7,264 bases of DNA from positions 1 to 7,264 of the IMG/VR virus record IMGVR_UViG_2565956631_000003; one strand, given 5' to 3'. Origin of the DNA: a virus. Lineage: Duplodnaviria; Heunggongvirae; Uroviricota; Caudoviricetes. The translations under genes were made by a program, and so were the position numbers. Positions 1,499 through 6,285 of the stretch are shown in pieces. Each line of letters begins with the position of its first letter. Positions within the stretch are counted from its first letter, which is position 1. Under the pieces are notes generated by a model. That model had not been told where the DNA came from. It did no database searches and worked only from the letters and a program-made list of their open reading frames with translations.

Positions 1499-2935
1499 TC
1501 AGAATCCTCCTTTCTTCTTGGACTGCGGTTCCTCGCGTTCACGGCGGCGCATTTCAGCAGACTGTTGGTCTGTGTCATAAATAGCGCCATTTGCCTGTAT
1601 GCAATACACCGTGCCGGTATTGCCATGGCGATTGAGGCGAAGGATTAGTTCGGTTTCACCAGGAGGAACGCTGTCATCAAAAGCACCTTCACGATGGATC
1701 CCCACCCAATAATCGCAATCCTGTTCAATCTGCCCTGTATCTCGTGAGTCACTTGGTAATGGGCGTTTATTGGTTCGGCTTTCCAGTGCGCGGTTAAGCT
1801 GTGTCAGAAGCACAACAACACAATCAAGCTCTTTGGCAAGGTTCTTCAGTCCTTTGGTGATCATGCCGTAAGCAAGGTCGTTGCGATCGGCCTTCTCAGC
1901 GGTCATTAGTGTCAGGTAATCGACCAGAATCATGCCAACACATCCTTTTTCTCGCTTGATTCGACGACTTTCGCTGACGATTTGAGCCAGAGATAATCCC
2001 GGCGTGTCGTCGATGTAAAGCAGGTCGATTTCACTCAAGCGATTGGCTGTTTCGATCGCCCTGTTGAAGTCACCATCGTAATCACCCTGATAGCCGTCAT
2101 CGGCGTCATTTGTCGCCGGAAGGTAAAATATATTCGGGTTAACACCAGACTTCTGCCCTACCAGTTTTTCCAGTATCTGGTCACCTGGCATTTCAAGGCT
2201 GAACATCAGAGCTGGCTTTTTCTCATGCACTGCGCAGTTGATTGCCATCTGGCTGTATAGCGTCGTTTTCCCCATCTTAGGGCGAGCGCCAATGACAAAC
2301 AGAGAGCCTTTAACCAGACCTTTCGGTGACAGCATCCTGTCCAGCGATGGGATCCCTGTGCTCATTCCTCGTTGTTCGCCTGACGGGTCAAATCGCTTCT
2401 CAAGGTCGCTAACCCAGTCTTCCATGACCTCACCAAATGAGCGAAGGCCGCGACGCGATCCGGTTTTTGCATGGTCTGTCAGTTGCGTGAAAATCGCCTG
2501 AATAGCTTCGTACTTCTGCGTTGCAGTCATTCCGTTGCGGGAATAGAGCAATTCCGTCGCTTCAGTCATGCGGTTGATGGCGTAGCGTTCCATTGCGGTT
2601 TCACGAACCTGCATTGCATAGGCAACGATGTTTGCTGCGCTTGGCGTGTTCTTTGCGATCTCAGCGATATAAGCAAAACCGCCAACAGACGCCGTTAACG
2701 ATTTACGCTCCAGTTCATCGAAAAGCGTCAGGCCATCTACTGGCTTTTGCTCACGGTGCATTCTGGTTATTTCTTCGAAAAGGATTTTGTGTGGTCGACT
2801 GTAAAATGAATCAGGCTTCAGCATCGCCAGGACTTTCTGGACGCGCTCACTGCTGTCATCATCCAGAAGCAATCCACCAATCACCGCCTGCTCTGCCTCG
2901 ATGCTATGGGGCGGCGCATAAAAATTATCGGTCAT
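1499..2935 (-). CDS. Replicative DNA helicase, DnaB family (P22 gene 12-like)
   Basis: DnaB-like N-terminal region (SIEAEQAVIGGLLLD), Walker A GARPKMGKTT, and a RecA-like C-terminal core. Start taken as ATG 2935..2933 (MTDNFYAPP...) with GAGGG 9 nt upstream; the ORF track's 2950 start is an upstream in-frame GTG. The start overlaps the stop of the upstream initiator gene (ATGACCGATAA). Confidence 0.9.
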   Translation of the reverse strand: MTDNFYAPPHSIEAEQAVIGGLLLDDDSSERVQKVLAMLKPDSFYSRPHKILFEEITRMHREQKPVDGLTLFDELERKSLTASVGGFAYIAEIAKNTPSAANIVAYAMQVRETAMERYAINRMTEATELLYSRNGMTATQKYEAIQAIFTQLTDHAKTGSRRGLRSFGEVMEDWVSDLEKRFDPSGEQRGMSTGIPSLDRMLSPKGLVKGSLFVIGARPKMGKTTLYSQMAINCAVHEKKPALMFSLEMPGDQILEKLVGQKSGVNPNIFYLPATNDADDGYQGDYDGDFNRAIETANRLSEIDLLYIDDTPGLSLAQIVSESRRIKREKGCVGMILVDYLTLMTAEKADRNDLAYGMITKGLKNLAKELDCVVVLLTQLNRALESRTNKRPLPSDSRDTGQIEQDCDYWVGIHREGAFDDSVPPGETELILRLNRHGNTGTVYCIQANGAIYDTDQQSAEMRRREREEPQSKKKGGF

Positions 2936-3824
2936 CGTGTTCACCCTCACGAACTTTCAGGTAGGTATTATCGTTAAGCAGGAAATCAAATCCCTTTTTG
3001 TGCCAGACGGTTCCGCGTTGATGGTTTAGGCGCTCTTCGAACATCCATCGGCAATTTTCGCCTACGTAGCTCAAATAATTTCTCCAGTCCTGCATCGTGA
3101 ACCCATGCCCGTCAAGCTGGCGTGTTATCACTCCGGCTTTTCGCCAGAACGTTCGGATCTGGTTTTTACGCTTGTCATTCAGTGCGCGGATTTTTGGCGC
3201 TTCAGGAAGGATTTCGTGGTAAGCATCGACAACATCCTGACAGCTAACGGAAGGTTTTTTCTTGTCAGACTTTTTGTCTGCTGCGGTACTCTCTAATACG
3301 TCAGTATTAGAGATAATATTATTATATTCTTTATCTGTGGTAATTTGCTGGTAATCTGCTGGTACAGTATTGCTTGCAGGCATTGGTATTGCTGGCTTTG
3401 AGGTGGTAATTTGCTGGTAATCTGCTGGTACAAAATTTGACTGATAATCGTCATATTTCTCTACCGAGAAAACTGAGAATTTACCGTGTGAAACCCAGTC
3501 AATCATGCCGAGCTTTTTGAACTTTCTAAGCAGGTACTGAACGCGATCTGGTTTGAGTCCTGTTTCAAACGCCAGAGAGTTTCTACCGCCAAGTAGCTTC
3601 CCTCTGCCTACCAGAATTTCTCCTGCGTCAGTCATTACATACTCAGGCGTATGCTTTGCTTTGAGGATTAAGTGAACCCACAGATGCGCAGCTTCTGCGT
3701 CCTTGTAAAACGGCACATCCATAATTTTACGGTGCAGCAAGGCATACCCCTTACCGCTGCTTTGATGCGGTTGTTGTAGCCTTCTGGCCTCTCTGGCTTC
3801 GGCTAGATTAGATATGTTACTCAT
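2925..3824 (-). CDS. Phage replication initiator (lambda O / P22 gp18 functional analogue) containing the origin
   Basis: 299-aa ORF immediately upstream of, and coupled to, the helicase. N-terminal region looks like a winged-helix DNA-binding domain. A central duplicated peptide [10 protein letters not shown] is encoded by the iteron DNA. Family assignment is by position and architecture, not a confirmed match. Confidence 0.75.
3305..3431. repeat. Replication origin-like iteron array with flanking AT-rich tract, inside the initiator gene
   Basis: Two perfect 30-bp copies of GTGGTAATTTGCTGGTAATCTGCTGGTACA at 3336-3365 and 3402-3431. Each holds two sub-iterons of about 11 bp (GGTAAT[T/C]TGCTGG), with degenerate copies between (GGTATTGCTGG at 3384-3394). 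Adjacent AT-rich stretch at 3305-3335 (ATTAGAGATAATATTATTATATTCTTTATC) lies downstream in the gene's direction, as in lambda ori. Confidence 0.65.
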
Positions 3825-3963
3825 GACCTTTCTCCTTCTGCATCAGCTTCACTTTTTCCAACTCAGCCCGGAATCGACCAGGCTGCTTGAAGCTGGACAG
3901 GAAGCGATCACGTAGTATGTGTTTGTGAATTTTGTCCTGGTAAGGACTGAGTTGTTTTGTCAT
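3817..3963 (-). CDS. Small 48-aa basic ORF between cII and the initiator gene
   Basis: ATG at 3963..3961 preceded by GGAG at 5 nt. Translation [48 protein letters not shown]. Its TAA stop overlaps the initiator start (ATGAGTAA), suggesting translational coupling. Absent from the ORF track, presumably because it is short. Confidence 0.35.
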
Positions 3964-3973
3964 AATTACTCCT

Positions 3974-4049
3974 GTGGATTGATCCAGTAATTCCCTCAGA
4001 ATTGCATATCAATTTGCTTAAAATCCTCGGTGGCGGCCGGGGATTTTTT
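3974..4049 (+). ncRNA. oop: oop-like antisense RNA overlapping the 3' end of cII
   Basis: -10 CATAAT at 3961-3966 with a weak -35 TGGTAA at 3938-3943. Plus-strand intrinsic terminator at 4025-4049: CCUCGG-UGGCGG-CCGGGG stem-loop followed by AUUUUUU. Predicted transcript of about 76 nt. GAUCCAGUAAU...CCUCAGAA resembles my recollection of lambda oop RNA. Confidence 0.55.
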
Positions 4050-4292
4050 CTTTGTGATTTCATCAAGCGCATACTTAAAAGCCCTGCTAATCGGACTGAT
4101 GTCTGATGCCATTCCGAAAGCACACAAGACCGAAGCAATAAATCTCCAGTCCGTTCTGCTTATCTTCGATTCATGACAGCCAATCATCTTTGCCAGACCG
4201 CGCTGGGTAAGCGTTGACAGGTTGATTAGTAAATCAGTTTCAGCGCGATCAATTTCTCGCTGTGTTGGCTTGCTGTAGCTTGCTTGTGCCAT
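3996..4292 (-). CDS. cII: CII-like transcriptional activator
   Basis: 98-aa ORF whose C-terminus ...[18 protein letters not shown] is close to my recollection of lambda CII (...TNKKRPAATERSEQIQMEF). Helix-turn-helix segment ...SKISR.... Sits between cro and the replication genes. AGGAAA Shine-Dalgarno upstream of ATG 4292..4290. Confidence 0.85.
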
Positions 4293-4302
4293 TTGTTAAT
4301 TT
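4270..4302 (+). promoter_or_regulatory. PRE-like CII-dependent promoter (antisense to the cII 5' end, directed toward the repressor gene)
   Basis: TTGC-N6-TTGC direct repeat at 4270-4273 and 4280-4283 (TTGCTGTAGCTTGC), the CII-binding architecture of lambda pRE. Weak -10 TAATTT follows 13 nt after the second repeat (4297-4302). Position inside the start of cII matches lambda. Confidence 0.45.
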
Positions 4303-4350
4303 TCCTATATTGGTATTGAGTTATAGCGGCACACCCAATGGATTTGCCGC

Positions 4351-4390
4351 TGATGTTTGCTCACCCGGTTAGAGGTGAAAGGCCAGAACT
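4351..4390 (-). promoter_or_regulatory. nutR (boxA + boxB) N-utilisation site
   Basis: Minus-strand boxA GCTCTTTAACA (4390..4380). boxB hairpin UCACCU[CUAACC]GGGUGA (4368..4351) has the same 6-nt loop as the nutL boxB. Located between cro and cII, as in lambda. Confidence 0.6.
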
Positions 4391-4407
4391 GTTAAAGAGC
4401 AATTTGC

Positions 4408-4593
4408 TTATGCCGCTTGGCGGTAAGCACTTTCTTGATACTTCAGGGCGCCAGCTGTAACGATTTCCAATCGATAGGCGTCTTTCTCTGGGATAACTTC
4501 TTTCCACTGAGAGACTGCTGCATCGCTAATGCCTAGTGCTTTAGCAACAGCACGCTGGGTTCCGAAGTGGTCAATAACATCTTTTTTGTACAT
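4408..4593 (-). CDS. cro: Cro repressor (P22 Cro-like, 61 aa)
   Basis: MYKKDVIDHFGTQRAVAKALGISDAAVSQWKEVIPEKDAYRLEIVTAGALKYQESAYRQAA matches my recollection of P22 Cro. GGAG Shine-Dalgarno 7 nt upstream. Divergent from the repressor gene across the operator region. Confidence 0.9.
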   Translation of the reverse strand: MYKKDVIDHFGTQRAVAKALGISDAAVSQWKEVIPEKDAYRLEIVTAGALKYQESAYRQAA

Positions 4594-4607
4594 AGACTCG
4601 CTCCGAA

Positions 4608-4673
4608 ATTAAAGAACACTTAAATTATCCACCAAAGGAATCTTAAGTCAAGTTTATTTAAGATGTCTTAACT
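4608..4673. promoter_or_regulatory. Right operator region with three P22-type operator sites and divergent PR/PRM promoters
   Basis: Three 18-bp sites fit the P22 operator pattern ANTNAAGNNNNCTTNANT: 4608-4625 ATTAAAGAACACTTAAAT, 4631-4648 ACCAAAGGAATCTTAAGT, 4656-4673 ATTTAAGATGTCTTAACT. PR on the minus strand: -35 TTGACT (4651..4646), 16-bp spacer, -10 GATAAT (4629..4624). The repressor ATG at 4674 has no Shine-Dalgarno, so it may be leaderless from PRM. Confidence 0.7.
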
Positions 4674-5324
4674 ATGAATACACAACTGATGGGTGAGCGT
4701 ATTCGCGCTCGCAGAAAAGAACTCAAGATTAGGCAGGCTGCCCTTGGAAAGATGGTTGGCGTGTCTAATGTTGCTATTTCCCAATGGGAGCGATCTGAAA
4801 CTGAGCCCAATGGCGAAAACCTATTGGCCTTAGCCAAGGCTTTGCAGTGCTCCCCTGATTACCTGTTGAAAGGAGAGGATAGTCTTTCAAACATTGCCTA
4901 TCACAGCAGGCATGATCCAAGAGGTTCGTATCCTCTAATTAGTTGGGTAAGCGCAGGATGTTGGATGGAAGCTGTAGAGCCATATCATAGGCGTGCAATA
5001 GATAACTGGTACGACACAACGGTAGATTGTTCTGAAGACTCTTTTTGGCTCGACGTTAAAGGCGATTCAATGACTGCCCCGGCAGGACTGAGTATTCCTG
5101 AGGGGATGATTATTCTCGTCGACCCAGAAGTCGAACCACGTAATGGAAAGCTGGTAGTCGCCAAACTTGAAGGAGAAAACGAGGCGACATTCAAAAAGTT
5201 AGTTATTGATGCCGGTAGAAAATTCCTGAAACCACTCAATCCACAATACCCAATGATTGAAATCAATGGGAACTGTAAAATCATTGGCGTTGTCGTTGAT
5301 GCCAAGCTAGCAAACCTTCCTTAA
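4674..5324 (+). CDS. c2: Prophage repressor, P22 c2-type (HTH plus S24 LexA-like autopeptidase domain)
   Basis: 216-aa ORF MNTQLMGERIRARRKELKIRQAALGKMVGVSNVAISQWERSE... with an N-terminal helix-turn-helix, an Ala-Gly cleavage site (VSAG-CW), a catalytic Ser in GDSM and a downstream Lys. Near-full-length match to my recollection of the P22 c2 repressor. Confidence 0.92.
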   Translation: MNTQLMGERIRARRKELKIRQAALGKMVGVSNVAISQWERSETEPNGENLLALAKALQCSPDYLLKGEDSLSNIAYHSRHDPRGSYPLISWVSAGCWMEAVEPYHRRAIDNWYDTTVDCSEDSFWLDVKGDSMTAPAGLSIPEGMIILVDPEVEPRNGKLVVAKLEGENEATFKKLVIDAGRKFLKPLNPQYPMIEINGNCKIIGVVVDAKLANLP

Positions 5325-5349
5325 GGGGCTTTCGCCCCTTTTTTATTTC
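5323..5349 (+). terminator. Intrinsic terminator downstream of the repressor gene
   Basis: AAGGGGC-TTTC-GCCCCTT hairpin (5323-5340) followed by TTTTTTATTT. Confidence 0.6.
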
Positions 5350-5388
5350 CCGTTAAAAATCAAAGACAAACTAAATTCACACCCATAA

Positions 5389-5442
5389 AATTAAGTTTTC
5401 TTCAAAAATGCACTTGACCAATAAATTAAGAAGTCTTAAATT
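5389..5442 (+). promoter_or_regulatory. Left operator/promoter region (OL sites and PL)
   Basis: Two P22-type 18-bp operator sites: 5389-5406 AATTAAGTTTTCTTCAAA and 5424-5441 AATTAAGAAGTCTTAAAT. PL: -35 TTGACC (5414-5419), 17-bp spacer, -10 TAAATT (5437-5442), directed toward N. The second operator overlaps the spacer and -10. Confidence 0.6.
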
Positions 5443-5488
5443 TAAGCCATCAGCAGGACGCTGGAAGCCAAACGGAACAGATTGGCAG

Positions 5489-5528
5489 GCTCTTTAACAT
5501 CGACGGACTCTCAACCTAACCGTTGAGA
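5489..5528 (+). promoter_or_regulatory. nutL (boxA + boxB) N-utilisation site
   Basis: boxA GCTCTTTAACA (5489-5499). boxB hairpin UCUCAAC[CUAACC]GUUGAGA (5509-5528), a perfect 7-bp stem with a 6-nt loop. In the PL leader upstream of N. Confidence 0.65.
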
Positions 5529-5638
5529 CCAGAACTTGAGTGGTTTTGGGGATGGCGCGAATTGCAGCTGCAAGACAGCGATCGAGAAGATAAGCACCTC
5601 GACGCGTCATGCGCCAAAGCCACTTAAAGGAGACCATC

Positions 5639-5944
5639 ATGGTAACCATTGTCTGGAAAGAATCCAAAGGTACGGCAAAAAGCCGCTACAAAGCTCGCAG
5701 AGCAGAACTTATTGCCGAGCGACGCAGTAATGAAGCACTGGCGCGAAAAATTGCTCTAAAGCTCTCTGGTTGCGTCAGAGCAGACAAAGCAGCATCACTC
5801 GGAAGCATTTGCTGCAAGAAGAAAGAAGAAGTCGTTCGAAAAAATAGAAGTATTTATTACAAGGATTCAAACCCATTAGGAAACAAAATACATGCAGTCC
5901 AAAAAATAAAATTGTACAGTAAACTACCGTACGGTGCTTATTGA
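5639..5944 (+). CDS. N: N-type transcription antiterminator (phi21-like arginine-rich motif)
   Basis: AAGGAG at 5627-5632, 6 nt before ATG 5639. N-terminal MVTIVWKESKGTAKSRYKARRAELIAERR is the arginine-rich boxB-binding motif I recall for phage 21 N. First gene after nutL. The in-frame ATG at 5609 lacks a Shine-Dalgarno. The 3' third of the gene is markedly AT-rich. Confidence 0.8.
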   Translation: MVTIVWKESKGTAKSRYKARRAELIAERRSNEALARKIALKLSGCVRADKAASLGSICCKKKEEVVRKNRSIYYKDSNPLGNKIHAVQKIKLYSKLPYGAY

Positions 5945-5946
5945 GT

Positions 5947-6285
5947 ATGCTTATGGTGAAAAAGACTATTTATGTTAATCCTGACCGCGGACAAAACAGA
6001 AAAGTATCTGATAGAGGTCTTACATCTCGAGACAGGAGGAGAATAGCGAGATGGGAAAAGAGGATAGCATATGCATTAAAAAACGGTGTAACACCTGGAT
6101 TTAATGCTATAGATGACGGTCCTGAATATAAGATTAATGAAGACCCAATGGATAAAGTTGACAAAGCATTAGCAACACCATTTCCTCGCGATGTCGAAAA
6201 AATTGAAGATGAAAAATATGAGGATGTAATGCACAGAGTTGTTAATCACGCTCACCAACGAAATCCAAATAAAAAATGGTCATAG
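5947..6285 (+). CDS. Hypothetical 113-aa protein in an AT-rich segment immediately after N
   Basis: ORF begins at the N stop (TTG 5941, ATG 5947 or 5953; no clear Shine-Dalgarno, so the start is uncertain). Arg-rich N-terminal half (RGQNRKVSDRGLTSRDRRRIARWEKR) and acidic C-terminal half (EDPMDKVDK...EKIEDEKYED). AT-rich codon usage unlike the flanking genes. No family recognised. Confidence 0.5.
   Translation: MLMVKKTIYVNPDRGQNRKVSDRGLTSRDRRRIARWEKRIAYALKNGVTPGFNAIDDGPEYKINEDPMDKVDKALATPFPRDVEKIEDEKYEDVMHRVVNHAHQRNPNKKWS

Follow-up and report, generated by a model that had tools for sequence, protein, structure and literature searches.

The DNA analyzed here (the window, 7,264 nucleotides in all) is the immunity region of a lambdoid phage. 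Bases 3900-5700 match mEp235 at 99.6% and are 98% identical to phage 21, as well as to lambda imm21 and DE3. In orientation, the window's plus strand is equivalent to lambda's leftward strand, and the gene order P-O-cII-cro / cI-N is confirmed by the list of open reading frames and by Pfam (Table 1). The surrounding genome resembles mEp235, with its DnaB-type helicase and nun, rather than phage 21 proper.

Table 1. Genes, promoters and RNA elements of the window, in order of position
Feature	Position	Strand	Basis or detail
DnaB-type helicase	1499-2950	-	
O	2925-3824	-	
DUF2740 small gene	3817-3963	-	
cII, 98 aa	3996-4292	-	ORF list; Pfam Phage_CII, E = 2.7e-33
pRE: CII box TTGC-N6-TTGC (4270-4283) and -10 TAATTT (4297-4302)	4270-4302	+	OL657228 annotation mapped
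cII Shine-Dalgarno AGGA	4303-4306	-	ribosome-binding site mapped from OL657228
G-free A/C/U tail 3' of the hairpin	4307-4324	-	1 G in 20-nt tail
tR1 hairpin: AGCGGCA/UGCCGCU outer stem, A.G mismatch, 4-bp inner stem, AUU loop	4325-4351	-	
nutR boxB UUCACCU[CUAACC]GGGUGAG	4360-4379	-	-7.6 kcal/mol, 0/200 shuffles as good
nutR boxA GCUCUUUAACA	4390-4400	-	exact match; boxA-R in phage 21 OL657228
cro, P22-type Cro, 61 aa	4408-4593	-	ORF list; Pfam P22_Cro, E = 5.7e-28
pR promoter, TTGACT-16-GATAAT	4624-4651	-	consensus scan, 10/12 matches
cI (LexA-like)	4674-5324	+	
pL promoter, TTGACC-17-TAAATT	5414-5442	+	consensus scan
nutL boxA GCUCUUUAACA	5489-5499	+	exact match; boxA-L in OL657228
nutL boxB UCUCAAC[CUAACC]GUUGAGA	5509-5528	+	-8.0 kcal/mol, z = -5.1, 0/200 shuffles as good
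N antiterminator, 101 aa, phage 21 specificity class	5639-5944	+	identity to 1NYB peptide
nun homologue	5953-6285, start perhaps 5941	+	

The pR promoter sits among the OR operators, as annotated in phage 21, and drives the transcript that runs through cro, nutR, tR1 and cII. The annotated pL start of phage 21 maps to about position 5449 of the window, and the start of the pRE transcript would lie near 4309. A strong hairpin resembling an intrinsic terminator, with 12 pairs and a T-tract, lies on the plus strand at 4020-4047, opposite the end of the cII coding sequence. It corresponds to the terminator of the lambda oop RNA, and AJ237660 annotates the phage 21 oop RNA there. The O gene contains two near-identical copies of about 30 nt (GGTGGTAATTTGCTGGTAATCTGCTGGTACA; 3337-3367 and 3403-3433), some 66 nt apart and each with an internal repeat, which look like O-bound origin iterons as annotated for the phage 21 ori. 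Overlapping the cI stop codon at 5323-5340 (plus strand) is a GC-rich hairpin with a T-tract (AAGGGGCTTTCGCCCCTT TTTTATTT), likely an intrinsic terminator of the cI transcript, which precedes pL and the OL operators. A terminator is annotated at the equivalent position in phage 21, but on the opposite strand.

Nun is an exclusion factor: it attaches to lambda boxB and brings lambda transcription to a halt. The protein encoded by the nun region shares about 99% identity with HK022 Nun (PDB 6ALG chain N, E = 2e-71), and its gene lies directly 3' of N. This phage thus has both an N of phage 21 specificity and Nun, whereas in HK022 Nun replaces N. The mEp235 annotation likewise shows both.

The two nut sites are the elements through which N would act. 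On the pR and pL transcripts, boxA recruits NusB/NusE, and the boxB hairpin with its CUAACC hexaloop binds the arginine-rich motif of N, so that RNA polymerase resists termination. The window holds exactly two exact matches to boxA (GCTCTTTAACA), one on the minus strand in nutR and one on the plus strand in nutL. With up to one mismatch allowed, 0.16 matches are expected by chance, and none of 200 shuffled windows contained two. Together with the U that precedes it, nutR boxA reads UGCUCUUUA, the rrn-type form (consensus boxA CGCUCUU(U)A, rrn UGCUCUUUA; PMC2724277). The boxB hairpin follows after a spacer of 10 nt in nutR, measured to the 7-bp stem, and 9 nt in nutL. The nutL stem is a perfect 7-bp inverted repeat; two of the 7 bp of the nutR stem are U.G, and the CUAACC hexaloop there holds if the U.G closing pair is counted. 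Counting outward from the loop, nutR and nutL show two-sided differences at five of their seven stem pairs and one-sided differences at the other two.

Residues 8-29 of N, the arginine-rich motif, show 100% identity to the 22-residue N peptide of phage 21 in PDB 1NYB (chain A), a structure whose RNA is the phi21 boxB with a CUAACC hexaloop (PMC12550061, a 2025 survey of loop motifs). Over its full length, N shares 79% identity with its phage 21 counterpart, with no difference in the first 56 residues and divergence in the C-terminal third. In OL657228, the complete phage 21 genome (PMC9119081), the annotations boxA-R, nutR, boxA-L and nutL map onto exactly these window bases, with both boxB hairpins marked as stem_loops, and the nutR stem_loop is annotated in AJ237660 as well. 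The placement is also that of phage 21, with nutL on the pL transcript ahead of N and nutR on the pR transcript after cro. Judged by sequence, then, both are genuine phage-21-class nut sites, and the identity to the solved complex makes it nearly certain that N21 would bind both boxB hairpins. The first-pass annotation had recognized boxA at both sites, two boxB stems that differ around one shared loop, compensatory variation between them, and a phi21-type N motif as their partner, and all of this is borne out. The span it had assigned to these features, 4325-4390, contains the repeat discussed below but barely touches nutR boxA, and nutL lies about 1.1 kb away.

Two further observations concern nutR boxB. 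In relatives, base 6 of the phi21-type loop varies, giving CUAACC, CUAACA and CUAACU, along with one CUAAUC; these variants occur at loci L242 (PA28), L278, L286 and L289, and loop bases 1-5 are otherwise constant. We also noticed that UUGCUC (4397-4402, minus strand), which overlaps boxA at its 5' edge, could pair with GAGCAA (4357-4362, minus strand) just 3' of boxB. The resulting 6-nt long-range helix would enclose boxA, the spacer and boxB, but it is probably due to chance, because the minimum-energy fold does not use it and the upstream arm is absent in VT1-Sakai.

Between nutR and cII lies an additional inverted repeat, with arms AGCGGCA (4325-4331) and TGCCGCT (4345-4351) separated by 13 nt. 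The first-pass annotation had given its sequence and coordinates correctly. On minus-strand RNA the stem extends inward by four pairs to form an 11-bp interrupted hairpin, and a 33-nt segment in this sense, that of the pR transcript, folds at -15.9 kcal/mol (z = -4.4; 0/200 shuffles), compared with -12.7 kcal/mol for the plus-strand RNA of the same segment. By itself, a bare 7-bp perfect repeat with a loop of 3-20 nt is weak evidence, with 9.3 expected per shuffled window, or 0.09 per 68-nt gap between boxB and cII. The reality of the hairpin rests on its extended stem and on its conservation.

The hairpin starts 9 nt after boxB, and its 3' end is 18 nt from the cII Shine-Dalgarno sequence and 32 nt from the cII ATG. 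In both the minimum-energy and the centroid folds, the Shine-Dalgarno and AUG of cII are unpaired, and the hairpin overlaps neither. As the first-pass annotation had also remarked, the repeat has no U-tract: a scan for intrinsic terminators calls it on neither strand. We therefore ruled out an intrinsic terminator at 4325-4351, which is followed by AUAACUCAAUACC when read in the pR sense and by GAUGUUUGCUC when read the other way. A search of the whole window against Rfam at a permissive threshold returned no nut or tR1 family, and its sole match was a chance snoRNA (E = 0.53). The G-free tail that follows the hairpin would, by analogy with lambda, be the zone of pausing and transcript release.

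This hairpin already has a name in public records. In AJ237660, an older phage 21 record, the feature 'terminator tR1' spans 343-368 and has the sequence AGCGGCAAATCCATTGGGTGTGCCGC, the 4325-4351 repeat itself. AP000400, from VT1-Sakai, labels AGCGGCAAATCCATTGGGTGTGCCGCTATAACTCAA, comprising hairpin and tail, as 'putative rho-dependent terminator for pR transcript'. The tR1 mark of OL657228 covers 4 nt that map to 4310-4313, which is 12-15 nt beyond the base of the hairpin and immediately ahead of the cII Shine-Dalgarno. Matching of these sequences identifies the repeat as the hairpin called tR1 in public phage 21 records, although the labels themselves may rest on analogy. The nut sites, N and the hairpin are all known and annotated, contrary to the novelty that the first-pass annotation had implied.

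Comparison with known systems shows which aspects of this arrangement are shared. In phage 21, the sequence from boxA through boxB and the hairpin is identical to the window, including the CUAACC hexaloop; phage 21 differs at two bases between the hairpin and cII (4302 and 4313). Lambda has the same order of elements from cro to cII, with a U-tract-free hairpin and a G-poor tail at a similar distance from the ATG (36 nt in lambda, 32 nt here), but its sequences are unrelated and its boxB loop is GAAAA rather than CUAACC. The lambda hairpin folds at -5 kcal/mol and lies 25 nt after boxB, whereas the hairpin here, at -15 kcal/mol, is about three times as stable and lies 9 nt after boxB. Rosenberg et al. 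reportedly assigned the lambda hairpin to tR1 in 1978, and Lau, Roberts and Wu (1982/1983) are said to have found lambda transcripts released in clusters after it. The lambda record places rutA and rutB on either side of boxB. In the lambda pR-cro-nutR-tR1-cII arrangement, Rho-dependent termination reaches 74-93% in vivo and is abolished in rho mutants (PMC4937328).

Modules of P22 and of Stx phages (types B, D, E and F) also have boxA and boxB followed by a hairpin of 6-7 bp, 27-37 nt before cII or c1. They differ from the window in boxB specificity class and in hairpin sequence, and their hairpins are short (18 nt) with loops of 4-6 nt, yet some of these modules precede a cII almost identical to that of the window. 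The first-pass annotation had proposed a comparison of folds and sequences with phi21, P22 and lambda; the phi21 site proved identical, and lambda and P22 proved to share the layout with other sequences. HK022-type putR, in contrast, occupies the same interval between cro and cII, next to the same cII gene family, without a separate hairpin at -75 to -16. HK022-type antitermination operates through put RNA and without N (PMC9378689).

We extended this comparison by gathering regions upstream of cII from a viral contig collection with three cII queries and two DNA anchors. About 90 contigs carry the phi21-type module, and among them the hairpin hardly changes while its flanks vary. The sole diverged lineage of this type, comprising PA28 and Stx1a phages at 86% identity, keeps the hairpin at -16.4 kcal/mol, and a search of the viral collection for diverged copies added this lineage only. 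A 17-nt anchor outside the hairpin, searched against one genome per species, found nearly all of its matches in unrelated taxa, probably by chance.

Altogether, eight sequence-distinct nutR modules (phi21, PA28, lambda, P22 and four unnamed) each have a different hairpin, whose 3' end lies 27-37 nt ahead of the cII ATG; the 20-nt tail after it is G-poor, with 0-2 G (Table 2). The distance from boxB to the hairpin ranges from 6 to 29 nt, so the spacing to the ATG is far tighter. These modules are not fully independent, because P22 and type D share a stem and lambda and type B are partly alike, and common ancestry is possible. In a fixed window from -75 to -16, folding is better than that of dinucleotide shuffles in the five modules tested (z from -1.7 to -3.3), whereas the HK022-like put-type module has no hairpin in that window (z = +1.2). 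Loci L056, L347 and their relatives carry the same cII family behind a put-type module without boxA, boxB or a hairpin at the tR1 position.

Table 2. Hairpins preceding cII in eight nutR modules
Module	Hairpin	Distance from 3' end to cII ATG	Folding energy, pR sense (kcal/mol)	G in 20-nt tail
phi21 / window	AGCGGCA..UGCCGCU	32 nt	-15.1	1
PA28 (Stx1a)	AGUGGCAA..UUGCCGCU	31 nt	-16.4	2
lambda	UAUGCA-UUUAUU-UGCAUA	36 nt	-5.3	1
P22	GCGCAU-CAACGA-AUGCGC	33 nt	-7.2	0
type B	UAUGCGU-UUCC-ACGCAUA	37 nt	-6.5	0
type D	GCGCAU-AAGUUG-AUGCGC	33 nt	-7.5	2
type E	ACUCAUC-GAAA-GAUGAGU	34 nt	-8.5	2
type F	ACGCAUC-AACA-GAUGCGU	27 nt	-9.0	2

The collection also shows to which unit the hairpin belongs. Near-identical cII genes lie behind phi21-type, P22-like and HK022-like put-type modules. 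Those behind P22-like modules have the same GGAAAATTAACAAATG leader and another hairpin, and those behind put-type modules have another leader and no hairpin. The junction between module and gene falls between the hairpin and the cII ribosome-binding site. Because the same cII follows differing modules and the junction is 3' of the hairpin, we assign the hairpin to the nutR module, not to cII.

Changes within the stem are less informative. All hairpin changes in the PA28 lineage are one-sided (C-G to U.G, U.G to C-G, and a shifted internal mismatch). Among the seven distinct variants of the phi21-type hairpin family we found no two-sided compensatory change, and 7 of 12 pairs never vary; covariation therefore lends no statistical support there, and the shuffle control for it was uninformative. 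The two fixed stem differences between phi21 and PA28 are C-G to U.G, which are tolerated in the pR-sense RNA only. Across all modules, six single-site stem transitions are compatible only with the pR sense and two only with the antisense, a difference that is not significant.

Taken together, these observations make it very likely that positions 4293-4407 (minus strand) form the nutR-tR1 control region of phage 21 immunity and that 5489-5528 (plus strand) is the matching nutL. The tR1 mechanism set out here is drawn from analogy with lambda tR1. When N is absent, Rho would load onto the unstructured, C-containing RNA around boxB. Polymerase would slow in the G-free stretch 10-20 nt past the hairpin, just ahead of the cII ribosome-binding site, and Rho would then free a cro-only transcript there. 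The hairpin probably helps to fix the point of pausing and release, and probably shields the 3' end of the released cro mRNA, as the lambda case would suggest. With N at nutR, polymerase would instead read through into cII, O and P. The first-pass annotation had offered two roles for the repeat, in a Rho-dependent tR1 or in translational control of cII, and the first is the better supported, by the independent labels in AJ237660 and AP000400 and by the similarly formed and similarly placed hairpins in lambda, P22 and five other types of nutR module.

Several features point against a simple copy of lambda. The gap of only 9 nt between boxB and the hairpin leaves no lambda-like rutB, C exceeds G around nutR to a modest degree only (C minus G of +3 to +6 per 40 nt across 4430-4341), and the hairpin has about three times the stability. 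In a more far-reaching proposal, which we consider improbable as a whole, the hairpin would be a required, module-specific part of every N-dependent lambdoid nutR-tR1 cassette. It would serve two transcripts: on the pR transcript it would set where Rho releases the RNA and where the cro mRNA ends, and on the convergent pRE transcript it would act as a leader structure. The strong phage 21 version would offset the missing rutB.

Alternatively, the hairpin could control cII translation, either by shaping the mRNA upstream of the ribosome-binding site or by bounding a ribosome standby site. Its 3' end is close enough to the Shine-Dalgarno and ATG for this to be considered, and the near-constant distance from hairpin to ATG across the eight modules would fit, although it would fit a role in the pRE leader equally well. 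However, the unpaired Shine-Dalgarno and AUG, neither of which the hairpin overlaps, and the 18-nt gap rule out sequestration of the ribosome-binding site by the hairpin. Together with the association of the hairpin with the nutR module rather than with cII, seen where differing modules precede near-identical cII genes, they leave translational control, the second role offered in the first-pass annotation, disfavored and in our judgment unlikely.

Less likely still is that the functional RNA comes from the opposite strand. The CII-activated pRE transcript is antisense to cro and sense for cI, and a start near 4309 would place the repeat at about +15 to +42 of the pRE RNA, as a 5'-proximal hairpin that could affect stability or elongation. 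The plus-strand RNA does still fold, but less well than the pR sense (-12.7 versus -15.9 kcal/mol), because, in the phi21 and PA28 lineages alike, U.G pairs of the pR sense turn into C.A mismatches. Moreover, a hairpin that begins some 15 nt into the RNA is ill-placed for protection of the 5' end.

We regard as very unlikely the idea that the repeat is part of the nut site itself, with its 3' half (UGGGUGUG) resembling boxC, a GU-rich element placed downstream of boxB, and contacting NusA or other Nus factors. The 3' arm does contain GGGUGUG, a run that we take to resemble lambda boxC, the name boxC being that of a third nut element (PMC2724277). Nevertheless, this GU-rich run is base-paired within the hairpin, PA28 alters it to GGGGAUUG, and GU-rich sequence is absent from the corresponding hairpins of P22 and of types B, D, E and F. 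Least probable of all is that the palindrome arose by chance or that a dimeric protein binds it at the DNA level: perfect 7-bp repeats are not rare, as the shuffled windows show, but this stem reaches 11 pairs at z = -4.4, is near-invariant in about 90 contigs amid varying flanks and does not resemble this phage's operators, and modules of unrelated sequence keep a hairpin at the equivalent place, which argues for an RNA form rather than a DNA motif.

The reading of 4325-4351 as the hairpin of a nutR-tR1 region places it within a well-studied system, since the phage 21 nut sites and N are classic, structurally solved examples of RNA-protein recognition. For that system, the natural boxB loop variants could tell which loop positions N21 reads. 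Apart from the survey of modules, the value of the present analysis is limited to correct annotation. What the analysis adds, modestly, is the survey itself, in which a hairpin at the tR1 position is constant in N-dependent lambdoid nutR regions and absent from the put-type module, and which thereby provides a testable statement on what a lambdoid tR1 region needs.
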